Assembly (NCBI GenBank): GCA_038109055.1
Contig: JAYNIM010000003.1
Span: 12,671-76,670 of the forward strand
Direction of reading: 5' to 3'
DNA: 64,000 bases
Origin: a bacterium
Lineage (GTDB): Bacteria > Margulisbacteria > Marinamargulisbacteria > GCA-2716485 > JAYNIM01
The notes under the pieces are model-generated. The model searched no databases, had not been told where the DNA came from, and saw only the letters and a list, made by a program, of their open reading frames with translations. The position numbers and the translations under genes were made by a program. This document shows, piece after piece, positions 18,611-40,500 of the stretch; the stretch's first letter is position 1; every line of letters begins with the position of its first letter.

Positions 18611-19510
18611 TTGACAGCTCTTCGTGAGGGCGTGATACTAACAGTAATGGATACTGATGAACTATGTATAGATAGAACTCTCCCTGGTTCCTGTGGGGTA
18701 TTGGGCCTTGGTGTTTTTGATGGTTGTCATTTGGCGCATCAAGAACTGGCCAAACACTGTGATACGCTTTTGAGCCTCTTTCCTCACCCTCGCATGGTTT
18801 TAGGTAATGAAAGCTGCCAATATTTGAGTATGCCTGAGGAACGTAAGGTGTTTTATGAGCGGTCTCTGGTACTCCGCTTTACGCCGGAAGTTGCAACACT
18901 CTCCGCGCTTTCATTTTTAGAAAAACTCTGTCATCAACTGTCGCCAACAGGCTTTGTGGTGGGTTATGATTTTCGCTTTGGTCACCAGCGTGAGGGGGAT
19001 GCGTCATTTTTGCGTGATTGGGCGAAAGACCGCGGACTCAGTTGTCGCATTGTCCCCTGCTTTCGTTATCATGATACTGTAGTTAAAAGTGGTGTAATTA
19101 GAACAGCTATACGTGAAGGCAAGTTTGATTGGGCCGTGACACTCCTTGGCCATCCCTATGTCGTGACAGGTGATGTTATTACAGGCGATGGTCGTGGTAA
19201 GTCTTTGGGATTTCCTACAGCTAATCTTTCTCTAGCGCCAGAGAAGCTACTGCCTGCCCCAGGTGTATATGCTGCACGCCTAATCTCCCCGTTTAAGGAT
19301 CACTCTGCAATCGTATATGTGGGCTCGAAACCGACATTTTCTGGCAAAGGGCAACATCTTGAAGTCCATGTACCTAACTTTGAGGGCTCTCTCTATCATC
19401 AACGCTTACAATTGGGTCTGTATAAACATATTCGTGATGAAAAAGTCTTTGCTTCTCGAGACGCATTGATCTCCCAAATCAAACAAGACCTTGAGGCTCT
19501 TTCAACATGA
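18611..19510 (+). CDS. ribF: Bifunctional riboflavin kinase / FMN adenylyltransferase
   Basis: GVFDGCHLAHQ (FAD synthetase) and GDGRGKSLGFPTANL (riboflavin kinase). The tracked start is TTG; ATG at 18647 is an alternative. Confidence 0.85.
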   Translation: MTALREGVILTVMDTDELCIDRTLPGSCGVLGLGVFDGCHLAHQELAKHCDTLLSLFPHPRMVLGNESCQYLSMPEERKVFYERSLVLRFTPEVATLSALSFLEKLCHQLSPTGFVVGYDFRFGHQREGDASFLRDWAKDRGLSCRIVPCFRYHDTVVKSGVIRTAIREGKFDWAVTLLGHPYVVTGDVITGDGRGKSLGFPTANLSLAPEKLLPAPGVYAARLISPFKDHSAIVYVGSKPTFSGKGQHLEVHVPNFEGSLYHQRLQLGLYKHIRDEKVFASRDALISQIKQDLEALST

Positions 19511-20397
19511 GTACATCACCAGGGCTATGGAAAGCGTGGTTATTGGCGGCTCGACCTCAGACCCTGTTTGTAAGTATCTGTCCAGTATTAATAGCCATCG
19601 TCTTAAGTTTTCGCTTGGCTTCGATTGACTGGTTTGGGAGTGTATGTTGTCTCATGATTGCGCTTTTATTGCAGCTTGCGGCTAATTTTTCTAATGATTA
19701 TTTTGATGCTAAACATGGGGTAGATACGCCGCAGCGAGTGGGCCCTAAACGTGCCACTGCTGAAGGTTGGATATCGGCTAGCTCTATGAAACGAGGCTTT
19801 ATCTTGTGTTTATTAGCGGCCTTTTTACTGGGTTTGATTATCATTTTAAAAGCGGGATGGCTCTTTGCGATATTGGGGGTAGCCGCTATTTTATCTGCAA
19901 TTCTTTATACAGGAGGACCGTTTCCCTATGGCTATTTTGGTTTGGGTGATGTCTTTGCCTTTTTTTTCTTCGGGCCTGTCGCTGTCTGTGGAACGTATTA
20001 TGTGAATGCCTTGGTCTGGTCTGACTATGTGTTTATCTTAAGTGTCGCACCTGGACTACTTGCGACAGCTATTTTGGCTGTTAATAATCTGCGAGATTGT
20101 GATGAAGATACCCTACACAATAAACGAACTCTGGCTGTTTTATTGGGCAAGCGCTTTGTTAAATTTGAATATGCTGTGTGTGTGTGGGTGGCTGCCCTTA
20201 TTCCACTTTATCTTTATTTTCATCACGGCCTTTACCCTTTTACTGTTTTAACGATCATTGTTACTTTTTTGGCAAAAAAACCCTTACGTATGATGTGGGA
20301 TTCTGATGACGCTGATTTGAATGAGGCCCTTGTTAGAACGGCAAAATTGCTTGTAAGTTTTAGTATTTTGTTTACAGTTGGCGTTTTGGCAAATTAA
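19507..20397 (+). CDS. menA: 1,4-dihydroxy-2-naphthoate polyprenyltransferase (UbiA superfamily)
   Basis: Polytopic membrane protein with the NDYFD motif (LQLAANFSNDYFDAKHG) and a second Asp-rich motif (NNLRDCDEDTLHNKRTLAV). Confidence 0.8.
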   Translation: MSTSPGLWKAWLLAARPQTLFVSICPVLIAIVLSFRLASIDWFGSVCCLMIALLLQLAANFSNDYFDAKHGVDTPQRVGPKRATAEGWISASSMKRGFILCLLAAFLLGLIIILKAGWLFAILGVAAILSAILYTGGPFPYGYFGLGDVFAFFFFGPVAVCGTYYVNALVWSDYVFILSVAPGLLATAILAVNNLRDCDEDTLHNKRTLAVLLGKRFVKFEYAVCVWVAALIPLYLYFHHGLYPFTVLTIIVTFLAKKPLRMMWDSDDADLNEALVRTAKLLVSFSILFTVGVLAN

Positions 20398-20402
20398 CGT
20401 TT

Positions 20403-23306
20403 ATGTCTGAACGTGTTTATGTGTATACCCAGGGCTTTGATCAAGGATGGCGTGGTCCTTTTTGGGATATGTTTTTTCAAATTCTTGCCCATAATGGTGC
20501 GAAGGACTGTCTTTTTTTAGTTCCGAGTCATGCCTTTAAACAATCTTTAGTGAGCGAATGTCTGCGTCGATTAGATCATGATATATGCTTGCCTGATTTG
20601 CTGACCTTTGATGAGCTTATTGCCGCCTGTTTTTATGAGCAGGTTGATGCCCATGTCCTAACTGAACAAGGCTGTCTTTCCGCCTGCATGCAAGACAATC
20701 CTCTCCTGTGGCCATCTTCACTACAATCACCTGCGTCTCTTAAAGCATTGCAAGCATTGTGGCAGGATACTCGCCGTTATGGATGGTCGGCTACTACGTA
20801 TAAACGTTGCGAATCGCACCCTTTTCATGAGGCTATTCCTAGGCTTTTTTTAGAGGCCCAACAACGTCTCAAGAGCTACCCCACAAAGCCCCTCTTATCA
20901 CTGTATTATCGTGCTGAGAAAGAGGGGTATTGCTCTTTGTTAGAGTTTGTCGGATCACGCAGTGTTTTTTGTGCTGGGTTTTGGCAACTCCCCCCCTATC
21001 AACAAGCTGTGTTGGATGCTTTGTGGACCTTGCCTGGCGAGCATAGTTTATTGCTGTATTATATTGCGGGTCATTCAGCTTACCAAGCCGCAGTTCCTTG
21101 GATACGTAGGCTTGAAGCTGATTCACGTATTGAATGGCTCTCGGCTGAGTCTCCGTCTTATCGTAAAACTCCCTCGTTGTTTGTAGCAGACCATGTGCAG
21201 CAAGAAGTCGCTCATCTTATCTCTTGGATTTTGTCGGCGCTTCAAAGTCAAACAATTAAATGTCTCGAAGATGTTAGTATTGTGCTGGCGGATTATACTC
21301 GTTATTTGCCTGTTCTAGCCCAAGAAGCCCAAGCAAAGAGCCTGCCCCTTTATTTATCTACACGGTATTTAGAACAACGCCCTCTTGGACGGCTTATCCA
21401 AGCTATCCTAACCTTAAGCTATCCCCTGCAAGATCTCCAGGCTTTTTTGGGCCTCTTTTCTCAGTCTTTATTCCATTCTTTTCAAGGCATCATCCCCTTG
21501 CCATGGTTATGGGAACTCGCTGATTCCATCGGTCGAAAACCTCGTTATTGGCTTGACTGGGAGCGTGCTTTTCACACTGTTCGCAACAAATGTCCAGAAA
21601 TTGAACAGTCGGCGCTTGATTCCCAGCTGGCACTTCTAGACGCATTAAACAAACAGTGTCAGCGTTTTTTTTATGCGCGCTCTATGCATGAGATCATCAC
21701 TGCTTTTGTTACTTTATGGAAGGCGATTGATCTTGATACCTTTGTCTCCACGTTTTCTGAGAGAGATTGCGATTTATTTCGAGCGGATACTGAGGCCTTT
21801 GATGCCTTGCTGTTATCTCTTGAAATCCAAGAATCTCAGCGTATTTTGATGATTGATGGCCCAGAGTCCTGGCAATCTCGCTTGCGTCTGGGTTTATCAC
21901 AGCAGACGGTGAGCTCTCCACATAAAAACGGACTTCGCATCGTGGGTAAATTTGACGCTTTCTTAATCAATACCCCGGTCATTTGGATCTTGGGTTGTGA
22001 ACAAGGTACGTGGCCACAGGCTCCCAGACCCTCTGTTTTTATCTCCTCTCAAACTCGAAAACGGTTGGGCTGGCCCTCTGTTGCTGATCAAGCCTTGGCT
22101 GATCGATATATTTGGGAATCGTTATATCAACATCCTGACGCAGAGGTTATGCTGAGTGTATCTCGTTCACAAAATGACCATAGGCTGTCACTCTGTGACT
22201 GGATATTGCCTGACACCCAACGTCAGGTTCAGACCTGTGTTTCACGTGAAACATCGTTTGTTTTAGCTGAAAAACCAGTCCCTCTTTCAGAAAAACTGAT
22301 TTCTATGAAATCGACTCTTTCACTCTCTAGCTCTGATACTCTCTCTAAAACTGACACTACTCATTCTGTTTATAGTCCGTCTATGCTCGAGTCTTACCAA
22401 CGCTGTCCTCGTGCATTTTACCTTCGTCGTGTACTAAAGGTGCCTGACTCCTCGCCTAGCCAACTAGACATTGCTGATAAAGATTGGGGAGATTTGTTGC
22501 ATGCTGTGATGAAGGAATTTGTCTCTTCATGGCCCTACACATCGCTTTCTAAGGCGGAGAACACCCTCTCTACTCTCTTTAAGGATTATGCACAACGCCT
22601 CTTTCCAGATGATCACTGGCTACACTTTCGCTGTGAGCGTTGGAAAAAAGGTCATGCTTATCTTAAATCTTGGATCTCTCTACTGAGAGAACTCTTTGTT
22701 AATTATAAACCTATTGGCCTTGAAGTTCCTTTGGGGCCTTTCACACAAGAAAGTGAAACTGACTCCTTCTCGGTTTCAGGGCAAGCGGATCTACTTATTC
22801 AGCATCGCGAAAAACCCTTTGTCTTTGTCGTGGATTATAAAACAGGCTCGATGCTTAGCAGCCCGGCAGATCTTCGTCAGGGCAAGTCATTGCAGCTCCC
22901 CCTATACTTACTTGCCTTGCAACACCATCCTGGTTTAGTACTCAATGGAACAAACCTACTTCCTTCTGATGTCCATATTGGAGGGGCTATCTTATTGCAG
23001 TGCCACCGTGAGTTACTCACCCATAAAACCCTCGTCCTATCTCCAGACTGCAAAGAGGACACCCCTTTGTCGGCACCGGGCCCCCGCTCCTATCTCACTT
23101 GGGATGACCACAGTAAACTTGACACCATCTCTATTCTTGATGATATTCATCATGATCTTTCTGAGAATATGTATAGTGAAGATCCTGTTCATGGACGCTC
23201 AAATGCCACCTCTAACCCAACCTTTCGTCAACAAAGCTGTTCATTTTGCTCGTTTCAATGGAGCTGCCAGTATCCCGAACGCTGGAAAGGGGCGCTTGGT
23301 GGATAA
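20403..23306 (+). CDS. addB: AddB-type helicase-nuclease subunit (RecB-family nuclease with Fe-S cysteines)
   Basis: C-terminal PD-(D/E)XK motif (FVFVVDYKTGS). Cysteines YQRCPRAFY...CSFCSFQWSC match the AddB 4Fe-4S staple pattern. No N-terminal Walker A. Immediately upstream of addA. Confidence 0.8.
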   Translation: MSERVYVYTQGFDQGWRGPFWDMFFQILAHNGAKDCLFLVPSHAFKQSLVSECLRRLDHDICLPDLLTFDELIAACFYEQVDAHVLTEQGCLSACMQDNPLLWPSSLQSPASLKALQALWQDTRRYGWSATTYKRCESHPFHEAIPRLFLEAQQRLKSYPTKPLLSLYYRAEKEGYCSLLEFVGSRSVFCAGFWQLPPYQQAVLDALWTLPGEHSLLLYYIAGHSAYQAAVPWIRRLEADSRIEWLSAESPSYRKTPSLFVADHVQQEVAHLISWILSALQSQTIKCLEDVSIVLADYTRYLPVLAQEAQAKSLPLYLSTRYLEQRPLGRLIQAILTLSYPLQDLQAFLGLFSQSLFHSFQGIIPLPWLWELADSIGRKPRYWLDWERAFHTVRNKCPEIEQSALDSQLALLDALNKQCQRFFYARSMHEIITAFVTLWKAIDLDTFVSTFSERDCDLFRADTEAFDALLLSLEIQESQRILMIDGPESWQSRLRLGLSQQTVSSPHKNGLRIVGKFDAFLINTPVIWILGCEQGTWPQAPRPSVFISSQTRKRLGWPSVADQALADRYIWESLYQHPDAEVMLSVSRSQNDHRLSLCDWILPDTQRQVQTCVSRETSFVLAEKPVPLSEKLISMKSTLSLSSSDTLSKTDTTHSVYSPSMLESYQRCPRAFYLRRVLKVPDSSPSQLDIADKDWGDLLHAVMKEFVSSWPYTSLSKAENTLSTLFKDYAQRLFPDDHWLHFRCERWKKGHAYLKSWISLLRELFVNYKPIGLEVPLGPFTQESETDSFSVSGQADLLIQHREKPFVFVVDYKTGSMLSSPADLRQGKSLQLPLYLLALQHHPGLVLNGTNLLPSDVHIGGAILLQCHRELLTHKTLVLSPDCKEDTPLSAPGPRSYLTWDDHSKLDTISILDDIHHDLSENMYSEDPVHGRSNATSNPTFRQQSCSFCSFQWSCQYPERWKGALGG
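22238..22253. other. parS-type palindrome, 16/16 (inside addB)
   Basis: TGTTTCACGTGAAACA, read as codons tgT GTT TCA CGT GAA ACA (CVSRET). Confidence 0.75.
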
Positions 23307-26088
23307 GTGGACCCCTAGCCAAGAACAGGCCATTTTTAATCAGAAACAAAACTTGCTCATTGAGGCGGGTGCAGGGTCGGGAAAAACGGCCGTCCTAGTT
23401 GCCCGTTATTTGGAGTTTTTACGACAAGGGAAGGATATAAGCCCAGAAAACATCTTGGTCCTTACATTTACTAAAAAAGCAGCCTCTGAGCTAAAAACGC
23501 GCATATCGACTTCATTGCTTGATTCGCCTGATCTTTGCCTGGATCGCCATTTTCAGCGAGAGTCATGGATTACAACCATTCATGGATTCTGCAAAGAACT
23601 TTGTGACCGTTATGGGTTTCAAGCCGGTCAGGCGCCTTACCCCTCTATTCTGCAGGATGGGATTATCTCGTCTCATTATTTAGACACTTGTATTACCCAG
23701 GTTCTTTCCACTTCCACTTCAGCCTCTCTCGCTCCCCTCCAACGACTCATGCAGCATATGTCCCTTCATCAATTAACCCGCTCTTTAAAGTCCGCCTTAC
23801 AGTCCCCTTTGAGTATGGAGACCGCTATCTCAGCTATGACCTTACCCCTGACTGGACATGACCTTACTTATGACGAGGCAAGGACCTTTTTCGCTACAAA
23901 AGACCTCACATTAACCCCTTCTAGCTTCACTAGCCTGTCTCTCTCTGTAGATTTTATTTGTTTATATCGTCACATTTGGGAGAGATACTGTCATCTTACT
24001 AGCAGGCTCAATTGTATCAGCCAAGATGATCTTTTACATCGTGCTAAGGCAGTGCTTGAAGACCGAGATATTCGACAGGCCTGCCAGAAACAGTTTCGTC
24101 ACGTGATGATCGATGAATGCCAGGATACAGATCCTTTGCAATGGGAGATCCTTCATGCGCTCTGTGATGATTCAGACCCGCTTCTGCCTAAAAAATTATT
24201 TTTAGTGGGTGATTTAAAACAAGCCATCTATCGTTTTCGTGGTGCCCAATCCCATTTATTCGTCTCCTTCATGAACACATTTTCCAAGCACCCAGACTCT
24301 CAGGTGGTGTCCTTACAAGAGAATTTCCGTTCAACTCAACCTATCATCACACTTGTCAATCATCTATTTTCTCAGCAACTCGATCCTTTTAGCCCCCTTG
24401 TTGCGGTTCATGATTCCTCCCTTAAACATCCCGTATGCTTGGCTCGGCTTGAAACTGACGCGTTTCACGTGAAACATGTCCTCCATTGGGCAACCACACA
24501 ACGTGAACAACTTGACCTCAGCTGGAACGATGTTGCACTTCTATGCCGAAATCGTCGCCAGCTGACTTACTGGAAACAACAGTTCCTTGATGCCCACATC
24601 CCCTGCTGCGAAGACCTTGACCCGTTGACCTATAAACGTGAATGGACCATAGACCTCATTATGCTTGCGCAGGCCCTTATAGACCCCTTTCATCACCAAG
24701 CGTGGCTTCGACTCTGTCAGTCCCGACTGCTCTCTCTCTCGAATGACAGTCTAACTGTGGTCTGTCAGGAGCTGCCCTTGCAGACTAGCTTTTCGTGGCT
24801 GACACGACTTCAGCATCTCCCTTCATCGCCGCTTCTTACACAGTTCCTAAAAAACTATCACACTGCGGCTCAAAAACGTCGCAATGACTCTCTAGCCTCC
24901 GCTGTTTCGCATTTTCTATGCTCTTCCAGCTATATCCTTACCCAAGATGAAAAAGACGCTGAATCCTGCCTCTTACAGACACTTTATAGTCTTCAGTCCC
25001 AAGGGCTATCTGAACTTGAACTCCTCCAAAGTTTGAAAGCGATGACAGAAGGCCGCCTTCCTGCGACTACAGCGCCCATCGCCCCTAAAGGCATTCGACT
25101 TATGACCATGCATGCGTCAAAGGGCCTTGCTTTCCCTATCGTAATTATCCCAGATTGCCAACGCAGCACCTTTCGTGCTGATACTCGATCTTTTTCTATT
25201 AGCCCCTTTGGAATTGCGGCAAGTATTAAAGATGAAAATAAAAAGCAAAATACCTGGCGAGAGTTTATCAAAAGCGAAGAACAAAAGGCTCAGCTTCAAG
25301 AAGAACGTCGCCTCCTCTACGTTGCGATGACCCGCGCAGAGAAAGCCCTTCTTGTTTGCGGTACCCATTCTCGTTATAAAAGTGGCACTTGGTGGGATTT
25401 TATCTTGCCATTTTGTTGTGACAATCACAATACGGATGCCAAAAACATGCATAAAGGTCCCTTCTCGCTCAAGAAAGAACTTCTTAATCAAGGCATCTAC
25501 TACACAGAATCACCCCAACAACCCCTTATTGCCCCATCTACTGACGCCATAACACAGACAGCCCCCATGCTATGGCAGCGAGCTCCTTTCGTTACGCCCG
25601 ATTCATCACTTCCTAATACTCCCACCTCTACAAATCCTTCCTTCAGCCTTCATCAACAAGGTCTCGCAAAGTGGGGAAACTGCGTGCACCGGGCACTTGA
25701 ACTACGCAATCGCCACCCCAAGCGTGATAAAAAAACACTGATTCATCACAGCCTTCAACGTGTCTCCCCCCACTTACAGACATCCTGGACAAAGAAGCTC
25801 CATACTCTATTAGAGCACTATGAAGCACACCCCATCTTCACGGCAGTCTGCCAGGCAGAACGCCGCCTCATTGAACACTCCATCCGTTACATTCATAAGC
25901 AGACGCAGCAGCATTGCCGACTCGACCTTGCCTATCTTCACAATCAAAGGTGGACGATTGTTGATTTTAAAACGGGACGCAGTGATCCAGCGCAACTCGA
26001 GAACTACAAACATGCGCTTCGCTACTGGCTAGGGACGCCCAGCATTGTCATTGAGGCCATGTTTATAAATATCACTTCCTTTGGATGA
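23299..26088 (+). CDS. addA: AddA-type UvrD/Rep helicase-nuclease subunit
   Basis: Helicase motifs AGAGSGKTAVLVARY and TFTKKAASELKTRI, with LVGDLKQAIYRFRGA. C-terminal nuclease RLDLAYLHNQRWTIVDFKTGR. Start placed at GTG 23299 (GTGGATAA overlap with the addB stop). The tracked ORF start at 22945 lies inside addB. Confidence 0.85.
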   Translation: MDKWTPSQEQAIFNQKQNLLIEAGAGSGKTAVLVARYLEFLRQGKDISPENILVLTFTKKAASELKTRISTSLLDSPDLCLDRHFQRESWITTIHGFCKELCDRYGFQAGQAPYPSILQDGIISSHYLDTCITQVLSTSTSASLAPLQRLMQHMSLHQLTRSLKSALQSPLSMETAISAMTLPLTGHDLTYDEARTFFATKDLTLTPSSFTSLSLSVDFICLYRHIWERYCHLTSRLNCISQDDLLHRAKAVLEDRDIRQACQKQFRHVMIDECQDTDPLQWEILHALCDDSDPLLPKKLFLVGDLKQAIYRFRGAQSHLFVSFMNTFSKHPDSQVVSLQENFRSTQPIITLVNHLFSQQLDPFSPLVAVHDSSLKHPVCLARLETDAFHVKHVLHWATTQREQLDLSWNDVALLCRNRRQLTYWKQQFLDAHIPCCEDLDPLTYKREWTIDLIMLAQALIDPFHHQAWLRLCQSRLLSLSNDSLTVVCQELPLQTSFSWLTRLQHLPSSPLLTQFLKNYHTAAQKRRNDSLASAVSHFLCSSSYILTQDEKDAESCLLQTLYSLQSQGLSELELLQSLKAMTEGRLPATTAPIAPKGIRLMTMHASKGLAFPIVIIPDCQRSTFRADTRSFSISPFGIAASIKDENKKQNTWREFIKSEEQKAQLQEERRLLYVAMTRAEKALLVCGTHSRYKSGTWWDFILPFCCDNHNTDAKNMHKGPFSLKKELLNQGIYYTESPQQPLIAPSTDAITQTAPMLWQRAPFVTPDSSLPNTPTSTNPSFSLHQQGLAKWGNCVHRALELRNRHPKRDKKTLIHHSLQRVSPHLQTSWTKKLHTLLEHYEAHPIFTAVCQAERRLIEHSIRYIHKQTQQHCRLDLAYLHNQRWTIVDFKTGRSDPAQLENYKHALRYWLGTPSIVIEAMFINITSFG
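24461..24476. other. parS-type palindrome, 15/16 (inside addA)
   Basis: CGTTTCACGTGAAACA, read as gCG TTT CAC GTG AAA CAt (AFHVKH). This is a different reading frame from the addB copy. Confidence 0.65.
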
Positions 26089-26104
26089 TGTTTCACGTGA
26101 AACA
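26089..26104. other. parS centromere-like site, 16/16
   Basis: TGTTTCACGTGAAACA starts 1 nt after the addA stop codon. Confidence 0.85.
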
Positions 26105-26288
26105 AGCCCTCTACACCTACCCAATCCTTGATACCCTCCTATTTCACAGATAAAATAAATAGAAATGTATATCCCCCCCCGACCTATTAAAATTAGCGAA
26201 CTGTCCCATTTTTTGTTGTTGCCTCGGCAATGCTAACAATACCCCCACACAATCAGCCCCATCCACCCAAAACAAAGTATCCCAAGCT

Positions 26289-27014
26289 ATGCGCAGTCCC
26301 TCACAAGACCCCCCTCAAGAGGCATCAAAAACAGCCGATTCAAAAAAAGAACTGGAACTAGCAACAGCAGTATCCCCACCAGGACCATTAATTGAGCTGC
26401 AAAACATCAGGGGACAGGCAGGGCTCAATGAGGGGCTAAATACATTTTTAAGCGCTCTAGACATCTACGACAAAACGCAGTCTCTAGGTAAATACCACAA
26501 ATTTGCAACAGGCGCCATGAGCACCCTGAGCTTTTTTGGCACGAAAAACAAGGATGGCTTTTGCGCTGATACCATCGAAGATTTATGCAGCAATTATGGC
26601 GTTACGGACTTAACTGAACTAACACCAGTTCAATTACGAGAAATCCTTCAAAAGAACTCAGACCAAGCCATCAGTCCTCAGAAAGCCGGCTCTATTCTCA
26701 GACAAATCATGGCCTTAGGAAGAGATCACTCTCTTCTCGGCTTGACGATCTCAGGGCTCGTAATGGGGGCACAACGTTTTCACCCTGAAACAAAAGGAGG
26801 CGTCCCCATAGAACACAAACGCCACCTTCGCCTCGCCCTCCTCCTACGCATCACCATTTCAATCATTGTCGAGGGCGATCCCCGTAATGAAAACGATGCC
26901 TTCAGTAACATCTTAAACAACTGTATAAAACTACAAGAAAGCTCCCAATTCATTGACTTCTCGAAATGCAAGGCATCAGTTGATAATTATCTAGCAAAAA
27001 GAGACACCCACTAA
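26289..27014 (+). CDS. Hypothetical protein (241 aa), no recognisable domain
   Basis: It is the only long ORF between two perfect parS sites. It has a Pro/Ser/Gln-rich N-terminus. I recognise no motif. Coding status is inferred from length only. Confidence 0.5.
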   Translation: MRSPSQDPPQEASKTADSKKELELATAVSPPGPLIELQNIRGQAGLNEGLNTFLSALDIYDKTQSLGKYHKFATGAMSTLSFFGTKNKDGFCADTIEDLCSNYGVTDLTELTPVQLREILQKNSDQAISPQKAGSILRQIMALGRDHSLLGLTISGLVMGAQRFHPETKGGVPIEHKRHLRLALLLRITISIIVEGDPRNENDAFSNILNNCIKLQESSQFIDFSKCKASVDNYLAKRDTH

Positions 27015-27191
27015 CCGCCTCTCTCTTGAATAAACTGGGCATCTCACATAGAGCACACTCCTTCTTATACGCAAAATCACTTAAAATAAGCCCCATAAAC
27101 CGCACACTCCGGCCACAATCACTTCCCGCCACCTCTCATTAACCAAGACCGCAATTACAGTAAGCCTACATCCCCGCCATTAAGACAACAA

Positions 27192-27207
27192 TGTTTCACG
27201 TGAAACA
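27192..27207. other. parS centromere-like site, 16/16
   Basis: TGTTTCACGTGAAACA. The flank ATGTTTCACGTGAAACAA(G/T)CCCT... is shared with the 26089 copy. Confidence 0.85.
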
Positions 27208-27505
27208 ATCCCTACAATACACCCCCAAAGCTTCACTCCATTATCACCTTAAACACAGTAAAACAATTGGTTAACCACTATAAAAACTCCCGAACGGCCG
27301 ACCATCAACTAACCTTTTTCCAAAAATAAACTAACCATCTATGCTTAGATTACTATAAATACTTCTCTTTTATTACAAATTTATACAGCAAAAAAAAACC
27401 ATGTCTTCACCCATTTCAGCTCAATAAAAACCCGATAGACTATTAATATGGATACTACTTTAGTTATCTTACCTTTATATTTAGCTAACCCTTAACGACT
27501 TTTTC

Positions 27506-27521
27506 AATTTCACGTGAAAAC
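27506..27521. other. Degenerate parS-like site, 12/16
   Basis: AATTTCACGTGAAAAC has the core TTTCACGTGAAA intact. It lies ~80 bp upstream of parA. Confidence 0.4.
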
Positions 27522-27598
27522 AAAATTTTATTTTTAAACGCGTTTACGTTACTATTTAATTGTAAAATACATTGTAAGGACCTAATCATCACCTAACC

Positions 27599-28393
27599 AT
27601 GAGCGCTACTATATTTGCAATTGTGAATCAAAAAGGGGGAGTGGGCAAAACGACCACCGCAGTCAACCTAGCCGCATACCTAGGCCAACAACAAAAGAAA
27701 TGTTTACTTGTTGACTTCGATCCTCAGGGAAATGCTAGCTCCGGTATTGGGGTGCAAACTGAGTCACTGACCTGTGGCATCTATGAGCTTATGATGACCA
27801 GCAAAACACTCCCGGAAACTCTGTGCCCAACCCCATTCAAAACCCTTCACCTACTACCTGCCACCCGTCACCTTGCAGGTGCGGAAATCGAGCTTGTAGA
27901 ACTTCAAAACCGTGAACTATACCTAAAAAATACCCTAGCCCCCCTAGAAGATTACTATGATTACATCATAATAGACTGCTCCCCATCTCTTGGACTCCTT
28001 ACAATCAATGCGTTATGCGCTGCACATAAGGCCATCATTCCATTACAATGTGAATATTTTGCACTTGAAGGCATTGCAGGACTCATCAACACACTTACGC
28101 AGGTAAAAGATACCCTTAACCCGCTCCTAGAAATAGGCGGAATACTCTTAACAATGTTTGATGGACGAACAGCGCTAAATAGACAAGTAGTAGAAAATGC
28201 AAGACAGTTCTTTAAAGATCTTATATTCGACACTTTAATTCCACGAAATATCCGATTAAGCGAAGCACCCAGCCATGGACTTCCGATATCAATCTATAGC
28301 CCAAAATGCAATGGAGCTATCGCTTACCAAGCATTAACAGAGGAGGTATTAAAACGTGCAAAACAAGAACAATACAGCACCGAGACTCGGTAG
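27599..28393 (+). CDS. parA: Chromosome-partitioning ATPase ParA/Soj
   Basis: Deviant Walker A NQKGGVGKTTT, plus DFDPQGNAS and IIIDCSPSLG. Confidence 0.9.
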   Translation: MSATIFAIVNQKGGVGKTTTAVNLAAYLGQQQKKCLLVDFDPQGNASSGIGVQTESLTCGIYELMMTSKTLPETLCPTPFKTLHLLPATRHLAGAEIELVELQNRELYLKNTLAPLEDYYDYIIIDCSPSLGLLTINALCAAHKAIIPLQCEYFALEGIAGLINTLTQVKDTLNPLLEIGGILLTMFDGRTALNRQVVENARQFFKDLIFDTLIPRNIRLSEAPSHGLPISIYSPKCNGAIAYQALTEEVLKRAKQEQYSTETR

Positions 28394-29246
28394 AGGCCTC
28401 GAGGCATTACTATCACGCGATCCCATCACAAACAATAAGGGCGACAGCTTCCTAAGCGCTGGCAGGACAATTATGCAACTTCCCATATCACTTATTGATC
28501 CCAGCCCCTATCAACCGAGAAAACACTTTAACACAGAAGCCCTACTACAACTATCTAACTCTATTAAAGCGCATGGTCTTGCCCAACCTATCGTTGTACG
28601 ACGAAATGACAAACGCTATGAAATTATTGCCGGAGAACGTCGATTTAGAGCAACTCAAAGTGCTGGAATTGATAAAATACCTGCAATTATACGCAGCTAT
28701 AGCAATCAAGAATCGCTACAAATTGCCCTTATAGAAAATCTTGACCGCGAAAACCTAAGCGCCATTGAAACCGCCAGGGGTTATGCGCGCCTTATGTCAG
28801 AATTTAATGTCTCTCAACAAGAAATAAGCCAAATTTTCAACAAAAATAGAAGCACCATAAGCAATACACTTCGACTACTTCACCTACCTGAAGACGTACA
28901 GCAGCTGATCATAAAAGGAGAACTTAGCGAGGGCCATGCCAGAACGCTATTATCCGCAGAAGATAGTGCCACCGTGCGAAAATTAAGCCAACGTATTATA
29001 CAAGAAGGCCTAAGTGTTCGAGCCTGTGAAAGCCTTATCAAATCTCTCAGAAACGACTCTAAAAATAAATCAAGCAAAACACCCCATGATCAAATATCAC
29101 TGTTCCCCGAAATTACTTCTCAACTCAGCCAGAAAATGGGAGCCCCTATCAACATTCAAGGAAATAATAAAAAAGGGAAAATTACCATTCAATACAAGAG
29201 CCCGAAAGAATTGGATCAACTCTTAACAAAATTAGACGGCATTTAA
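28356..29246 (+). CDS. parB: Chromosome-partitioning protein ParB/Spo0J
   Basis: RLGRGLEALL N-terminus, the GERRFRA arginine patch (EIIAGERRFRAT) and an HTH region (QQEISQIFNKNRSTISNTLRLL). The GTG start has AGGAGG 9 nt upstream and overlaps parA by 38 nt. Confidence 0.9.
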   Translation: MQNKNNTAPRLGRGLEALLSRDPITNNKGDSFLSAGRTIMQLPISLIDPSPYQPRKHFNTEALLQLSNSIKAHGLAQPIVVRRNDKRYEIIAGERRFRATQSAGIDKIPAIIRSYSNQESLQIALIENLDRENLSAIETARGYARLMSEFNVSQQEISQIFNKNRSTISNTLRLLHLPEDVQQLIIKGELSEGHARTLLSAEDSATVRKLSQRIIQEGLSVRACESLIKSLRNDSKNKSSKTPHDQISLFPEITSQLSQKMGAPINIQGNNKKGKITIQYKSPKELDQLLTKLDGI

Positions 29247-29259
29247 ATATTTCGGATGC

Positions 29260-29275
29260 TGTTTCACGTGAAACA
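29260..29275. other. parS centromere-like site, 16/16 (the palindrome extends to 20 bp, 29258..29277)
   Basis: GCTGTTTCACGTGAAACAGC, 13 nt after the parB stop. Confidence 0.85.
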
Positions 29276-29280
29276 GCAGA

Positions 29281-30349
29281 AGAATTTTAATCATGGCCAA
29301 GAAAAGACTAAGGATAAATTCATCTTATTACTAAATAGATAAAATATATACTCAAATAATTAATTGAAATATTAAACCTATACACAAAATACCATATTTA
29401 AAACTTAAGAATCTTATCATTTAAGAGCCATATAAAGATATAAGAATCACTTAGACTGGTTAATTTGGAAAGACCTAAGACTTTTATTCTAAATAGATCA
29501 ATATAAAAAGCAATATCAACATAGATCTTAAATAATAACCTATCCGCACTCCTATTATGCGACATCAGTTACTTAAAGTTTTATATTTTTCTGTCATTCA
29601 GTTCCGCTTAGATAAGAGCTTTTAAAGAATTTATCACCCCTTATTAACCATAATACAAACATATATATCAAGATGATCACTATATGAATATAGGCTTTTT
29701 TTTTTATTCTAAGTTGCATATAAGCGACATAAAAAATAGAAAGAGTACTAAAAAATAAATATCATAATCGTTTAATTAGTATAAATATAAGAAAAAACAA
29801 ATAAATCAAAATAACCTCCTACATATAAATAATATCTGCGCAAACATCCGCTCTTATCACGACGGAAACCTTTTTTTTATTTGTTAGTATATTTTTACAT
29901 ATCGTACTTATGATACTTTAGATTTTTTTTATTTTATCTGACATTCTAATAAAATCTATAATAAAAGACTTCTTAATAAATGGTTAATAAAGACAATTGC
30001 GATCTAATACTCTGACAATTCATAAATAAAATTATCTCAGATTTTATGTAAAAATATATTTGAATTAATATTTTTTAGAATTATGCGTATGTGTAAGAAA
30101 ACACCTATGGTTTTTACTCTATATTTATTATATATCAGGAGTAATATGAGTTGAAACTTAAGAAAATTGATTCCATAACGCAGTGCAAGAAGTTATATAG
30201 TTTAATCACATGGATACGCTTTGTATATATCGCCCATAAGTTTTTGGTTATCTTGGTTAACCGACTTTATTTTGAACAAAACAACTATAGTGAAATGGAC
30301 AAAGATATCAATAGAATAGACGTAAAACTAAAAAAAGTCTGCGTCTTTT
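29281..30349. other. ~1.07 kb AT-rich spacer with no credible gene
   Basis: The only tracked ORF is 30151..30384 (77 aa, low complexity, runs into the dgt 3' end). Hand count for 29341..29460: A58 T37 C16 G9. Confidence 0.8.
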
Positions 30350-31480
30350 CTAACTATTTTTTAGCAGTAAATGGGCTTCATTGAGTGCAAAAGTGTCGGT
30401 CATACCCGAAATATAATCTGCGATGACTTGCTGCATTGTCTCGTCTTCAATACGCACTCTTACCTTTAGAGGGAGTAAATTAGTATCTTTTTCATAGGCT
30501 TTAAATAACAACTTAATTGCCTCCTGGCCTCTTTTATTCATACGATAAATATCTTCATGCATATAAAATTTATCAAATAGATACGTTCTTAGCTGAGTAT
30601 TTTTTTTATTCATAGGGGCTGAAAAACGGATCAAAGGATGTAAACATCTTTGTATATCTTCAGGTCCCTTGATATCTTGAGCTACTAATTGGGATGTAGA
30701 CTCCTTCACCACATCCTCTATAAAGGTCGCAATTAAATACCGATGTATCTGGTGTCGTCTTTGAATAGCTGTTAATGCCTCACCTTCTAATTCTAGAATT
30801 CTCTTTGCATCCGACCATATTTCCACCTCTTTTCCTAGATCTTCCTCGGATAATATACCAGCCGATAAACCATCATCAATATCGTGGCTATTATAGGCAA
30901 TTTCATCCGCTAAATTAACAACTTGCGCCTCTAAACTAACAAATGCATCATTGCCATCAGGACTATCCCATGGCGTTTCATGTTTTAATAAACCCTCTCT
31001 AATTTCAAAGGATAAATTTAATCCACGAAAATTTGGATACTTAGATTCTAAATAATCAATGATGCGACGGCTTTGTCTATTATGTTCAAACCCCCCATAA
31101 TTTCTCATTAGCATATTTAACATCCGCTCTCCTGAGTGCCCAAAAGGCGTATGGCCTAAGTCGTGAGCTAAGGCTATACATTCAGCCAAATCTTCATTTA
31201 AACGTAGCAAACGAGCCAAATGACGCGCAATTTGTGCTACTTCTATGGTATGCGTTAAGCGAGATCTATAATGGTCTGAAATATTTGCTAAAAAAACCTG
31301 TGTTTTGTCCTTAAGACGCCTAAATGCTTTTGAATGTATGATACGATCTCTATCTCGTTGAAAACAGGTTCGGGTATCATTTTGAAAATTCTCTTTAAAT
31401 TTTCTTCCTTTACTGTCTTTACTTTTTACAGCGTATGGAGCTAAATATTTACTTTCTAATTCTTCGAAAAATTTTCGCAC
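30350..31480 (-). CDS. dgt: dGTPase-like HD-domain triphosphohydrolase
   Basis: RSRLTHTIEVAQIARHLAR...ALAHDLGHTPFGHSGE HD motif; 376 aa. Confidence 0.85.
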   Translation of the reverse strand: MRKFFEELESKYLAPYAVKSKDSKGRKFKENFQNDTRTCFQRDRDRIIHSKAFRRLKDKTQVFLANISDHYRSRLTHTIEVAQIARHLARLLRLNEDLAECIALAHDLGHTPFGHSGERMLNMLMRNYGGFEHNRQSRRIIDYLESKYPNFRGLNLSFEIREGLLKHETPWDSPDGNDAFVSLEAQVVNLADEIAYNSHDIDDGLSAGILSEEDLGKEVEIWSDAKRILELEGEALTAIQRRHQIHRYLIATFIEDVVKESTSQLVAQDIKGPEDIQRCLHPLIRFSAPMNKKNTQLRTYLFDKFYMHEDIYRMNKRGQEAIKLLFKAYEKDTNLLPLKVRVRIEDETMQQVIADYISGMTDTFALNEAHLLLKNS

Positions 31481-32289
31481 TAAACTAATGCAAAACAGAT
31501 AAATTGATTAACTGAATTAGTGGGAACTAACTGCTTAATACTTTTTTTATCATCTTTGATAAACGGCTGTTCCATTAAACATATCTCTTTGAAGAACTTA
31601 TTAAGCTTTCCTTCCGCGATTTTTTCTATTAAGTCTGCGGGCTTTCCTGATTCTGATAATTGAGACACAATTATAGCCTTTTCTTTTGCTTTTTCCTCTT
31701 CTGGCACATTAGCAGGGGTTACATATCGTGGTCTTGCAGCCACTACTTGCATGGCAATATCTTTCGCAATATCACTCTCTACTGACTGATTAAATGATAC
31801 TAAAGCTGCGATTTTAAAATTACTATGCATATATGTAGCTATAGAATTCTCTGACTCTAACTTTTCAAACTTTCCTACTTGTATATTTTCTCCTACCTTC
31901 AAAATAAGGTCTGCTACAGCCTGATCAAAGGTTTTCTCAAAAACGTTTTTATTTTTTAAATCTTCTAAAGTTTGTATGTCATCACTATTTAAAATTAACG
32001 TTGAAAGTGTCTCCCCAAAACTAACAAAATCATGGCTACTGGCCACAAAGTCAGTCTCACAATTTAGCTCTAAGATTACGGCTTTATTGCCTTCATTCGC
32101 AATAAAAACACGACCTTCACTGGTATCTCGGGACGCCTTTTTGCTTGCTGAAGCTAAACCTTTTTCTCGCAGCCACTTGACTGCATCATCAATATTGCCA
32201 TCTGCCTTAGTTAAGGCATCTTTACATGCCATCAACCCCACACCAGTTCTTTCTCTTAATTGTTTAACTAAGGATGCTGAAATATTCAT
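31480..32289 (-). CDS. tsf: Translation elongation factor Ts
   Basis: SASLVKQLRERTGVGLMACKDALTKADGNIDDAVKWLREKG N-terminal UBA-like domain, located downstream of rpsB. Confidence 0.9.
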   Translation of the reverse strand: MNISASLVKQLRERTGVGLMACKDALTKADGNIDDAVKWLREKGLASASKKASRDTSEGRVFIANEGNKAVILELNCETDFVASSHDFVSFGETLSTLILNSDDIQTLEDLKNKNVFEKTFDQAVADLILKVGENIQVGKFEKLESENSIATYMHSNFKIAALVSFNQSVESDIAKDIAMQVVAARPRYVTPANVPEEEKAKEKAIIVSQLSESGKPADLIEKIAEGKLNKFFKEICLMEQPFIKDDKKSIKQLVPTNSVNQFICFALV

Positions 32290-33107
32290 TTTTTGGTCGT
32301 CTCTTCTATCTTTTCTTCTTTTTCTTTAGCTGCCTTGACTGCAGTTTCAGTTTCCTTTTTGTTTGCATAGGCTACCTGCTCTGATTGGCCAGCAATCACT
32401 GCATTTGCACATACTGAACATAATAACTTAATGGCTCTAATAGCATCATCATTGGCTGGTATGGGGTAATCTACATCTTCTGGATTAGCGTTGGTATCTA
32501 CAACCCCTACAATTTTAATCCCTTTTCTTTTGGCCTCTTTAATGGCGAGATGCTCCTTATTTGTGTCTATGACAAATAAAATCTCTGGTAACCGCACCAT
32601 GTCTTTCACGCCATCCAAATAATTTTTTAAACGTTGATAGCGTTTTGTTTTTCTTGCTAATTCTTTTTTCGATAAGGATTCTAACATCCCCTCGGCTTCT
32701 TCTTTTGTGTACTTTTTTAACTTGTTTATACTCAGATGGATCGTTCCGTTATTTGTAAGAAAACCGCCTAACCAGCGTGAACTGATATAAAATTGTTTGC
32801 AGCGTAATGCTTCTGACATTACGGCATCTTGCGCTTGCTTTTTTGTCCCTACAAATAATACCGTTCCACCTTTCTTAACTGTCTCTTTAATAAATGCATA
32901 GGCTTCGTGAATTAACGGAATTGTTTGTTGTAAATCTATAACATGAATACCATTTCTTGCTGTAAAAATATATTTTTTCATTCTGGGATTCCAACGCCTT
33001 GTTTGGTGGCCAAAATGAACACCTGCTTCTAACAGGTCTCTCATTGCGATTATCTCGCTATCTTTATCTGTAGATTCTTCTTTTTGATCTGTTACTTGTT
33101 TATTCAT
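32286..33107 (-). CDS. rpsB: 30S ribosomal protein uS2 (possible N- and C-terminal extensions)
   Basis: MRDLLEAGVHFGHQTRRWNPRMKKYIF core. The tracked start adds 21 aa upstream; ATG at 33044 is the alternative. The tail is K/E-rich. Confidence 0.9.
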   Translation of the reverse strand: MNKQVTDQKEESTDKDSEIIAMRDLLEAGVHFGHQTRRWNPRMKKYIFTARNGIHVIDLQQTIPLIHEAYAFIKETVKKGGTVLFVGTKKQAQDAVMSEALRCKQFYISSRWLGGFLTNNGTIHLSINKLKKYTKEEAEGMLESLSKKELARKTKRYQRLKNYLDGVKDMVRLPEILFVIDTNKEHLAIKEAKRKGIKIVGVVDTNANPEDVDYPIPANDDAIRAIKLLCSVCANAVIAGQSEQVAYANKKETETAVKAAKEKEEKIEETTKK

Positions 33108-36549: not shown

Positions 36550-37575
36550 ATGATGCAGGATCGTTTAATTGATTTTACGTTACCATCCAACTTAATTGCG
36601 GATGCTCCTTCTCAGGCACGCGATCAGAGCCGTTTAATGCTCCTTTCATTGCCTCAAAAACGTCTCTCACATTATATTTTTAAGGAGATAGAGGATCTTC
36701 TTTATCCTGGCGATATGTTGATCCTTAATGATACAAAAGTACTTAAGGCCCGCTTGTTTTGTACTCGTGAAAGCGGTGGTCGAGTTGAAGTTTTATTGCT
36801 ACAAACTGTTACGCCCTTTGTCTGGCAAGCCTTGATTAAACCTAGTAAAAAACTGTCGATCGGAGAACCTTTATACCTAAGTAATGATTGTTTTTTTACG
36901 CTTGTTAAGAAAGAGGCCCCTTTTTGCCACTTACGCCTACCCGAAGGCCAATCTGCTCATGAGATCATGGCGCAATTTGGTGTGCCCGCGTTACCTCCTT
37001 ATATTCGTCATAGCCCTCTTAGTTTAGAGGATCAAATCTCGCGATATCAAACTATTTATGCAGATAAAGAAGGGGCTGTTGCCGCCCCAACTGCTGGCTT
37101 GCATTTTACTGAAGATTTATTGACGTCCTTACGTGCTAAAGGTGTTTGTATTGAAACAGTAACCCTTCATGTAGGATATGGAACATTTCAGCCTTTGGAA
37201 GATCGCCATTTTCAAGAAAATAAATTACACAACGAACGTTTTTATATCTCTGATGCGACAGCCACACGCTTGATGGCACATCGTCAGCGTCGTATTGCTG
37301 TAGGAACCACGACTATTCGTGCTTTAGAGTCTGCCTGGACTGGAACAAGGTTTCGTTCGGGTTGGCAAGAAACAACGCTTTTTATTCAGCCAGGTTATCG
37401 TTTTTCTACCTGTCAGGGACTGATCACAAATTTTCACTTACCTAAAAGCTCGTTACTATTACTAGTGGCTGCCTTTTCGGACGTCGCATTTTTGCAAGAG
37501 GCCTACCAAACCGCTATTGCCGAGTCGTATCGATTTTATAGTTTTGGAGATGTGATGTTTCTCTCTTATGATTAA
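36550..37575 (+). CDS. queA: S-adenosylmethionine:tRNA ribosyltransferase-isomerase
   Basis: DFTLPSNLIADAPSQARDQSRLM, AAPTAGLHFT, VGTTTIRALES and TNFHLPKSSLLLLV. Confidence 0.9.
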   Translation: MMQDRLIDFTLPSNLIADAPSQARDQSRLMLLSLPQKRLSHYIFKEIEDLLYPGDMLILNDTKVLKARLFCTRESGGRVEVLLLQTVTPFVWQALIKPSKKLSIGEPLYLSNDCFFTLVKKEAPFCHLRLPEGQSAHEIMAQFGVPALPPYIRHSPLSLEDQISRYQTIYADKEGAVAAPTAGLHFTEDLLTSLRAKGVCIETVTLHVGYGTFQPLEDRHFQENKLHNERFYISDATATRLMAHRQRRIAVGTTTIRALESAWTGTRFRSGWQETTLFIQPGYRFSTCQGLITNFHLPKSSLLLLVAAFSDVAFLQEAYQTAIAESYRFYSFGDVMFLSYD

Positions 37576-40500
37576 TCGCCCTTATTATTTTTCATCTTTA
37601 TATGAGGGTGCATTGTTGTGCTTGCGTTATTTTTTTTATTCTTATTTTTTGCTTTGTATTTCTGTTTTTTTCCTTCTATTTGCTAAAACTACTCTTGCTG
37701 TTACGCCATCTCCTTTATATGTTCAGGTTATTACGCCCACTGCTGCTATTCAGTTGAATGCCTTTGAACTTTCTAAGGTTATTTATGAAACAGAGAAGGG
37801 GGCCTCTTTTGTTATGTCTGGAGAATCGTTCTTTTTTTATGAAATTACTCTTGCAAATAATCAAAAGGCCTGGATCGATAAAACATTTGTTGCTCTTACC
37901 AAAACCCCTAGTGAGATTCTTACTCCTTCGTTAATTCGGCTGCCTCAACACTCTCACTATTCTTATGTGCCTAGCCATGTTTATGTAGACCCCCCTGACT
38001 ATCAAAATAAACAGATTCAAAACCTGAATATTGATGGTTTTTATACTATTAACTTTAGTGGTCGTGATTATAACCCTAAAAATACCCTTGATCCTCGTTG
38101 GCAGATTATCAAATCTGATCCGTTATACACAAAATTTCCTGCTGATGTTCTTTTAGGTCCACTGAAACGTGAAGATAGCTTTAAATTTTCCTTGGATAGT
38201 CATATTTCTAAGGATCTCTACCTTTATTTTGATATTGAATCTATTCCAGACTTTCGCTCTAGATGGGATGTTCGTCTACATTTAAAAGAAAATAAATTAG
38301 CTTTTGGTGCTATTGATGCTCAATTTAATAATGGTAGTTACTCTAATCTTAAAAAATCTATTGATGGCGTTAAATATCAACGAGAAACAGATCTCTATGC
38401 TTTTACTCTAGCAAATGGAAAACAACGTTCTAACCCTCAAAAAGTATCGTTTATGGGTGATGGTGGAAAAAACTACTCACTGCAGCACAGCTCTATTTTA
38501 CGAGGTACTGTTAAAGTGTGGGTAGACAACAACCTTCAAACTGAAGGATTGGATGGTGATTATACACTCAATTATTATACGGGGAGGATTTCATTTACAT
38601 CGATCAAAACAATTACGAATGTTATTGAAATTGTTTACGAGTTCACAAATCCAATTGAAGATTTTCTACCTATCTTAAATCGAAAAGAATTTACGGGATT
38701 TCAAGCAAGTTTTAATACCCTGCGTCCTGAAAAAAAGGAGGCTGTTGTTGTTGACTATCGTGAAGTCATTCCGAGTCGTTCGATTCAAGCAGGGTTTTTC
38801 CTGACAAAACATAGGCCCCTTATCTTTGATAGTGACTCTCTAACCTTTCCGAACAAAGATCTTCAGCGCAATCACCATTATGTGATGAACTATGATTCAG
38901 GAAAAATAACCTTTTTAACTCCTATCACATCTACTCATAATTTATCTTTACGTTATCAATTCCATAAAAATGATGCTACGACAGACTATTATGTCGGTAA
39001 AGATTCTCCCGGCCCTTTTCAATTGACTCACCCTGATATTATTCGTTCATCTTTATCTGTTTATGTTGCTGGTAAACGTGTTAAAGAAATTAAAGACTAC
39101 CTTATTCTTGATAATGACAATGGGTTTTATGAGATTATTTTTAATTACCCTATCTCTTTTCCACAGTTGATCTCTGTGGCGTATAACTATCGTATTAATA
39201 CCCTCATTCCGGCGCAAAAATCGAAGGAACAATTTACTTTGGGTGTGAATGTTTTTGAAGAAAAAATTCATAATAATGAAACTTCTCTTATTGGTACTGT
39301 AGAGGAACCTGCTATTGTTAGTCAGAATACTATTTATGCCTCTCGTGTGCCGTTGACGGAACTTGCATATTTTCAGGTGTCCTACTTGAACAATGTGGTT
39401 TCTCATAATATTACGGATGCTTATCGTGGTATTATTACCGTTAATGATGCATCGCTAAATGGCAAAAGTGTTTCACTGCGTTACAAGTATAAACGTAGTG
39501 AAACCGCTTTCCTAAGTTTTACAGCCAATAAAGCATCTCATACCTATGAGATTGATAAGTATCATTACAGTAATTTTTTAAACCCAATTCAATATCTAGG
39601 TATTCGAAAAGTAACTGTGCGTGATATCGAACTTGACCCTGGGGATTATTCCGTTGAATGGAGCCAAGATGGACAAAGCTTTACTATTACGTTCTTGCAA
39701 TACAATGTTGATACAAATACTGCGCCTCAAACTCAGGTTTTACTTGGAGATAAAATTGACATTCACTATAACTATACGCCTGATGTTGCAGTGACTGGTT
39801 TATTGCAACATCGTCAGTTTGGTTTTACTATTGGTACTCAACTTACAGATCGCTGGCGTGTTGATGGTGAAATTGCTGCTGCTCAAAATAATTTCTCCAG
39901 AAAGATTTCCTTTGTTTCTGAAACACTTCTTGCCTCATCCGCCTCTTCCTTCTCTCTCTCTAAAGGTCCTGTTAAAGAAAATAGTGACTCTGTGTTTTTA
40001 AATACAGGTACCAGTGATTTTCCTATTTGGATACCTGTTAATCAGAATGAATATTATTTAAATTATAATACAGGTCAACTTATCTTTCATTCGACAGTTG
40101 CTCCTAATACTATGATTAAGGTCGAATATGATTATTTTCTTAGTCAAGATTCAGTTGTTCCTGGCACAAACCCAATGTCTTATGCTAAAAAAATTGCCCT
40201 TAGCTATGATAATTCTATATTGAATAGCCATCTGTCCTATCAACATATCGATATAGATTACAAACCTCTTAGCCAAATCAGTGAACGTAACGGTAGCCGT
40301 TTATTGCGTTCTCAATCCACCTGGGAAATCAGTAGTCAAAACCGTATAGAAGCCACGTATAGCCATTCTTCCCAAGAACAAAAATATTATGAACCTGTTA
40401 TTCAACATGACTTTTTTACAAAATCAACTCTTAAACTATTTCAATATATTGATGTCGATGCATCCCTGACTTATCATAGTGAAAAAGAAAAATATATTAT

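Follow-up and report, generated by a model that had tools for sequence, protein, structure and literature searches.

A cluster of parS-type palindromes around parAB as the probable chromosomal centromere of a Marinamargulisbacteria bacterium

We analysed a stretch of 64,000 nucleotides (nt) from a bacterium of the lineage Marinamargulisbacteria (GenBank assembly GCA_038109055.1, contig JAYNIM010000003.1, positions 12,671 to 76,670 of the forward strand; hereafter the window), in which six copies of one palindrome lie around the partition genes parA and parB. Very probably, these six palindromes are a parS array and serve this uncultured bacterium as its chromosomal centromere. Judged from the DNA and its translations, assignment of the locus to the ParABS systems is supported by sites of the parS consensus, an adjacent ParA, a ParB with three domains and a chromosomal, origin-proximal position. 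For a bacterium of which little is known, a position for the centromere and, together with the dnaA region, one for the origin are of use in annotation and in orienting the genome.

Palindromes of the parS type around parAB

A mismatch-tolerant search of the window found the 16-mer TGTTTCACGTGAAACA exactly at four places and once as CGTTTCACGTGAAACA (15/16); a sixth copy, beyond the three mismatches allowed, reads AATTTCACGTGAAAAC (12/16), where the 12-nt core TTTCACGTGAAA is unbroken (table 1). The scores are the same against the chromosomal parS consensus tGTTNCACGTGAAACa: four perfect sites, one at 15/16 and one at 12/16. The only further match with at most three mismatches, at 12911, is chance-like and unrelated. 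Dinucleotide shuffles gave an expectation of 0.38 matches, and none of 100 shuffles got to six. Of this core the window has six copies and no more, always within 22240-29262; if six sites were placed uniformly over 64 kb, all would come to lie inside 7,022 base pairs (bp) with a probability of 8.5e-5. Neighbouring sites are 2223, 1628, 1103, 314 and 1754 bp apart. Outside the cluster, neither the window nor an extension of ~7.9 kb on its left has a full site. Heptamer half-sites are scattered through the window at roughly chance frequency, with no enrichment of the kind seen in Pseudomonas aeruginosa, and thus no hidden halo of weaker sites surrounds the cluster. An initial annotation of this DNA had described the same six sites with the same scores, their density around parAB and their placement at gene boundaries (directly after the addA stop, after the hypothetical gene, before parA and 13 nt past the parB stop), and all of this was found again.

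Two of the six copies lie inside genes. Read in its first frame, the palindrome gives TGT TTC ACG TGA and ends in a stop, and the other two frames are open; only these two frames can therefore carry it through a gene. The intragenic copies occupy exactly the two open frames, one each, so that the initial annotation was correct in reading them as different peptides in different frames (CVSRET in addB, AFHVKH in addA), the choice being between two frames only.

Considering that the cluster should lie near the origin if it were a chromosomal centromere, its distance from the dnaA region is of interest. Four DnaA boxes stand within 56940-57371, and the cumulative skew of guanine over cytosine (GC skew) has its minimum at ~55-57 kb. 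The measured distance from the parS cluster to the boxes is 27.7-35.1 kb, in agreement with the ~27-35 kb given before. Based on the dnaA-dnaN-recF genes, the DnaA boxes and the skew minimum, the parS cluster is thus chromosomal and origin-proximal.

The gene context was established by Pfam and NCBIfam scans, together with gene calls on contig L003, a separate assembly of the same organism. The parA gene, for a short Walker-type ATPase with no N-terminal helix-turn-helix, stands upstream of parB and overlaps its start. In ParB, the N-terminal part with GERRFRA is followed by a central helix-turn-helix domain for DNA binding and a C-terminal domain for dimerisation. The best sequence match of ParB in the PDB is the Bacillus subtilis Spo0J structure 6sdk (E 2.8e-53, residues 38-232), with the GERRFRA motif in register, and the protein scores 184.9 with NCBIfam parB_part, above the cutoff of 58.45. 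Like ParB, Noc is a ParB-family CTPase acting on a 16-bp palindrome related to parS. The Noc-binding sequence (NBS) is ATTTCCCGGGAAAT-like and is not centred on CACGTG. The protein of the window, in contrast, scores 239.7 with the NCBIfam Noc equivalog, for which the cutoff is 315, and its gene is paired with parA. A nucleoid-occlusion role of the Noc/NBS type was accordingly rejected on this score, the CACGTG centre of the sites and the operon with parA. The helix-turn-helix segment KNRSTISNTLRLLHLP...GELSEGHAR is, by what we take to be the specificity positions, of the ParB type and not of the Noc type at three of the four.

The nuclease-helicase pair that carries the intragenic sites is best called AddAB-like and highly divergent, a label given from architecture. 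Domain architecture and gene order fit AddA and AddB, while the scores with all NCBIfam AddA, AddB and RecB equivalogs are far under their cutoffs (53 bits for the AddB-like protein with addB_alphas), and hence the cautious name. According to the gene call, the real start of addA is GTG 23299 and not ATG 22945, which gives an overlap of 8 nt with addB.

Table 1. Features of the cluster and its surroundings in the window, and codons of the intragenic sites in three lineages
Feature	Position	Strand	Description
ribF	18611-19510		
ubiA-family gene	19507-20397		
addB-like nuclease subunit	20403..23306	+	967 aa (amino acids), C-terminal PD-(D/E)XK domain, very divergent
parS-1	22238..22253		perfect 16-mer within addB, codons 612-617 (CVSRET), starting at codon position 3
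addA-like UvrD-family helicase-nuclease	23299..26088	+	929 aa
parS-2	24461..24476		15/16 (CGTTTCACGTGAAACA) within addA, codons 388-393 (AFHVKH), starting at codon position 2
parS-3	26089..26104		perfect; first base directly follows addA TGA (26086-26088)
orphan hypothetical gene	26289..27014	+	241 aa, between parS-3 and parS-4
parS-4	27192..27207		perfect, intergenic; 178 nt past orphan gene, 392 nt ahead of parA ATG
parS-5	27506..27521		degenerate (AATTTCACGTGAAAAC), 12/16, core intact; 77 nt from site end to parA ATG
parA	27599..28393	+	264 aa; Walker ATPase of the short, chromosomal Soj type; AAA_31/CbiA
parB	28356..29246	+	296 aa; ParB_N with GERRFRA, HTH_ParB, ParB_C
parS-6	29260..29275		perfect; 13 nt beyond parB stop
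non-coding spacer	29276..30349		1,074 nt, 24.8% GC (guanine plus cytosine); right-hand bound of cluster
dGTPase, tsf, rpsB	beyond spacer	-	rpsB at 32286-33107
dnaA	55405-56748	-	dnaN and recF likewise on the minus strand
candidate oriC	56749..57406		658-nt intergenic region upstream of dnaA; TTATACACA three times, TTATCCACA once
intragenic parS, window	addB codon 612, addA codon 388		
intragenic parS, L004	addB codon 678, addA codon 713		
intragenic parS, L009 and L011	addA codons 134, 499		

What is common to all six sites is the palindrome of 12-16 nt alone. Longer likeness occurs in two pairs. The flank common to parS-3 and parS-4, already noticed in the initial annotation, reaches ~38 nt with small indels (ATGTTTCACGTGAAACAA[G/T]CCCT..TACACC..CCCAA), and the upstream flanks of parS-3 and parS-6 are alike at 8 of 9 bases (TTYGGATGM). 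Such flanks suggest copying of short segments, and one might see in the palindromes what is left of a small element, mobile or repetitive, or the target of some other CACGTG-binding regulator, with a coincidental likeness to parS. We consider this extremely unlikely, given that the palindrome equals the universal parS base for base, stands beside parAB, has its like at the same operon in relatives, and that the window contains neither a transposase gene nor a longer repeat family. An origin from repetitive extragenic palindromes or miniature inverted-repeat transposable elements was rejected because the flanks differ among the sites.

The orphan gene product had no Pfam or NCBIfam match, and tblastn gave no match in any fetched relative. 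In the relatives, the spacer between addA and parA measures ~340 nt and holds one parS and no orphan gene. That the gene is bracketed by the flank-sharing parS-3 and parS-4 would fit a duplication or insertion at this place by which one site became two. As a whole, the orphan gene region looks as if the addA-parA spacer had undergone an insertion or duplication in this lineage only. The plus strand at 26100-27600 is also extremely poor in G and rich in C and A, especially at 27015-27598; between the orphan gene and parA the spacer has a GC skew of -0.52, runs such as CCCCCCCC occur at 26174-26181, and the skew of this region exceeds the replication-related skew of the surrounding genes.

Linkage of addBA with parAB and apparent turnover of the sites

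The nearest ParB is 59% identical to that of the window, and the ParBs of the nearest relatives are 51-59% identical. Contigs were obtained for the three nearest ParBs (L004-L007 for P0002, L008-L011 for P0003 and P0004). In all of these the addB-addA pair was kept beside parA-parB, with addBA inverted in L004, and each lineage had three parS, two of them within addA or addB. The AddA and AddB proteins are only 20-32% identical across the three linked lineages. Protein alignment placed the intragenic parS at six different positions over the three lineages (table 1); each position corresponds to a protein segment that is unconserved in the other lineages, and every site is read in the xFHVK(H/Q) or the xVSRET frame. 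Because perfect parS recur in addA and addB at different, poorly conserved codons, the comparison indicates DNA-level selection for a parS array beside parAB, with turnover of the individual sites. The initial annotation had argued that the intragenic sites are conserved at the DNA level, and had proposed as a check their conservation at synonymous positions in orthologous addA and addB genes. The argument is upheld as far as selection on the DNA is concerned, but the six positions speak against conservation codon by codon, since the nearest relatives do not have the sites at orthologous codons. The three lineages, with perfect parS at different addBA codons, illustrate how sites come and go where selection favours a local array.

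As a control, 80 AddA-like loci were collected from metagenomes by an AddA alignment search (1.02 Mb in total, all at most 31% identical and unlinked to parAB). They contained three parS-like matches with up to two mismatches, in two loci, and none of the 80 loci contained ParA or ParB. From this control, the presence of parS in addBA tracks adjacency to parAB and not the AddAB genes themselves. The best metagenomic AddA relative (L020, 29% identity) has parS-like sequences at 2313 and 2965 (one and two mismatches), in a non-coding region of 1.3 kb upstream of addB, and its contig ends 140 nt past addA, short of any parAB. A search of genome contigs with AddA gave two unrelated, distant matches only and no close orthologue for a comparison of synonymous sites.

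A linkage kept in three lineages at 20-32% identity of AddA and AddB, despite the inversion in L004, and with two parS within addBA each time, might reflect a functional coupling, in which ParB loading controls the expression of AddAB or the activity of AddAB is tied to the centromere. Such a coupling appears very unlikely to us. The site positions are unconserved and lie in variable protein segments, the 80 other AddA-like loci show their three matches in two loci with no ParAB nearby, more distant ParB relatives have parS in gidB or parA instead, and 5.7 kb of weakly constrained coding DNA beside parAB is an obvious neutral landing pad. Moreover, no mechanism for a coupling is known.

In the more distant relatives (ParB 47-50% identical), parAB is found among other genes. 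L015, L018 and L019 contain three parS around parAB, within parA and in gidB, and L016 has a single match with two mismatches ~9.4 kb upstream of parB, in aconitase-family genes. The distance from the parS end to parA is 48-110 nt in L009, L011, L015 and L019 and 294 nt in L004; relatives thus hold a strong parS at the promoter-proximal place where the window has the degenerate parS-5. Without its outer bases, parS-5 may be a weak or decayed site.

Predicted action of the array and comparison with known systems

ParB is known to nucleate at parS, to clamp and spread with cytidine triphosphate (CTP) through its GERRxRA motif, to activate ParA and to recruit SMC at origin-proximal parS (PMC7333895). 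By analogy, ParB binding, spreading, segregation and autoregulation are predicted for the present locus, and we infer SMC loading at the parS cluster. ParB dimers would nucleate through the helix-turn-helix on the five sites that match at 15/16 or better, take CTP through GERRFRA, close into clamps and slide or spread. Because neighbouring sites are only 0.3-2.2 kb apart, their zones would merge into one ParB domain of ~7-10 kb that extends from addB and addA over the orphan gene to parAB. This agrees with the single concentrated ParB/SMC loading zone that the initial annotation had put forward, a reading that is supported as far as sequence analysis goes. ParA would segregate the ParB-parS complex soon after the nearby origin fires, and the complex would probably also load SMC. 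The intragenic sites would exist because selection favours several copies near parAB, where the adjacent DNA is coding; they would be placed in weakly constrained segments of the fast-evolving AddB- and AddA-like proteins, and be gained and lost over evolution. The degenerate parS-5 is probably a weakened copy of the promoter-proximal site that is intact in relatives, and may aid autoregulation of parAB.

Several points weigh against the centromere interpretation or narrow it. ParB occupancy of the sites is predicted from model organisms. The confinement of parS was observed within the 64 kb and the flank of ~7.9 kb. The pair L009 and L011 (93% DNA identity), which has its site positions in common and is the only one close enough for a substitution-rate test, agrees at 47 of the 48 bases in sites and at 329 of the 360 in the flanks; by our estimate the binomial P is ~0.07, which is not significant alone, the pair being too similar. 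In L100 and L101 (ParB 49-50% identical), no canonical parS was found within 5-10 kb of parAB, and dense clustering at parAB is therefore not universal. In parS-5, G2 is missing from both half-sites, which may make ParB binding there doubtful. Finally, no SMC, ScpAB or MukBEF gene was detected in the window, the sole SMC_N match among the scanned open reading frames (ORFs) being RecF at 52945-54057.

The palindromes might instead act mainly as transcriptional operators: ParB on the copies ahead of parA, behind addA and behind parB would repress parAB, addBA and the orphan gene or insulate them, with one site being enough for segregation. In fact, a parS or parS-like site stands 48-110 nt upstream of parA in the window and in four relatives, and P. 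aeruginosa offers a precedent, since its intergenic sites parS3 and parS4 keep neighbouring genes repressed and segregation needs no more than one parS (PMC7022226, PMC4368675). However, the intragenic copies and the copy after parB are not at promoters, and the promoter-proximal copy of the window is the most degenerate one. A promoter and terminator scan of 26000-30400 gave counts at or under the shuffled expectation, with no prediction overlapping a parS and no convincing sigma-70 site over any of them. We therefore judge this explanation rather unlikely, and an operator role would add to a centromere role, not replace it.

A close counterpart of the proposed centromere is the parS1-7 cluster of Caulobacter crescentus (Tran, Laub and Le 2018, PMC5815017), where palindromes of the same consensus lie within a few kb, beside parAB, partly inside genes and on one arm near the origin. 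TGTTTCACGTGAAACA is the published chromosomal parS of Hyphomonas, and a tGTTNCACGTGAAACa-type consensus is found in Caulobacter and on chromosome 1 of Burkholderia (PMC7022226). In Caulobacter, at least five parS occur within 5 kb, ~8 kb from ori, in essential genes or genes of high fitness cost; its ParB covers ~10 kb, whereas a single site supports spreading over at most ~2 kb (PMC5815017). One ParB domain of ~10 kb would likewise be expected here. The differences are that the cluster of the window stands 27.5-35 kb from the candidate oriC instead of ~8 kb, that four of its six sites are perfect 16-mers, that the host genes are AddB- and AddA-like, and that this system is known from its sequence alone.

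The first parS to be described lies within spo0J. With B. subtilis Spo0J/parS, and with further origin-proximal parS sets of Firmicutes and Proteobacteria (Lin and Grossman 1998; Livny et al. 2007, as cited in PMC7333895 and PMC5815017), the present locus shares an identical 16-bp consensus and the occurrence of parS within coding sequence, and with Spo0J itself the GERRxRA motif. Unlike the window, where all sites are within 7 kb, B. subtilis has its four strongest sites 5-39 kb apart (PMC5815017). P. aeruginosa resembles the window in that its four strong sites, parS1-4, are clustered near oriC and that intergenic copies can repress their neighbours (PMC4368675, PMC7022226), which makes these repressing copies a useful analogy for the site before parA. 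Its gene neighbourhood differs, and its many half-site targets contrast with the chance-level half-sites of the window.

Clustered, partly intragenic, origin-proximal parS are already well described in model bacteria and belong to textbook knowledge, so that the present cluster will hardly surprise a specialist, and the comparative picture leaves the current understanding of parS unchanged. What might be mildly new, speculatively, is the conserved addBA-parAB linkage, the lineage-specific intragenic sites and the long AT-rich spacer after parB, a combination with some bearing on the upkeep of parS arrays.

The spacer after parB and the wider window

The spacer at the right-hand edge of the cluster has counterparts in the relatives: 856-857 nt with 18-20% GC in L009 (7640-8496) and L011 (8972-9827), and at least 463-681 nt with 22-26% GC in L004 (10880-11342) and L005 (6945-7625). 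A long AT-rich spacer after parB is thus an architecture kept across the relatives of this clade. Between L009 and L011 the spacer is 82% identical, compared with 91-96% in genes. It gave no Rfam match, DnaA box or tandem repeat, and no DNA similarity across lineages, with marginal tblastx matches only. With the DnaA boxes and the switch in GC skew at ~56-57 kb, the idea of a replication origin in the spacer was rejected.

It has been raised as an open question what drives parS clustering (PMC7333895). The centromere of the clade could conceivably be a composite maintained module, made of addBA as a renewable carrier of parS, parAB and the spacer after parB, which we regard as distinctly unlikely. 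If it were so, selection for the parS array would bind addBA to parAB while single sites turn over, a spacer of 0.9-1.1 kb with 18-25% GC could bound or shape the ParB/SMC domain, and the module would offer a natural data set on what drives the clustering.

The parS cluster also stands on the boundary of a step in base composition, with ~41-47% GC to the left of parB (1-28000) and ~28-37% to the right (29000-60000). The Logan contig L003 (run SRR26337569) crosses the junction of this step, and the junction is therefore probably not a chimeric join. Gene age, horizontal gene transfer or expression are possible causes of the step.

On the far side of the window, genes for a KaiC-like ATPase and a fusion of a response regulator with KaiC, together with purA (60417-63512), adjoin oriC. 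The same KaiC-like, response-regulator-KaiC and purA genes stand immediately upstream of parAB in L015 (4808-9075) and L019 (5966-9074). Because these genes lie by oriC here and by parAB in the two relatives, an ancestral neighbourhood of ori and parAB is suggested to have been rearranged in the lineage of the window.

Rfam and tRNA scans of the window found nothing. Two large ORFs, at 37568-42775 (1,735 aa) and 2896-7455 (1,519 aa), belong to no significant Pfam or NCBIfam family. In L008, L009 and L011, an ORF of 1,514 aa without a Pfam match adjoins an Omp85 gene and may be TamB-like. Regarding the product of rpsB, ribosomal protein S2, the named matches are from Margulisbacteria and Rickettsiales at ~61-64% identity. 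Its best non-self homologue, at 74% identity, comes from a eukaryote assembly in EukProt (COSAG01_NODE_61...), a hint that protist samples may harbour relatives of this bacterium, either as companions of the protists or as contaminants.

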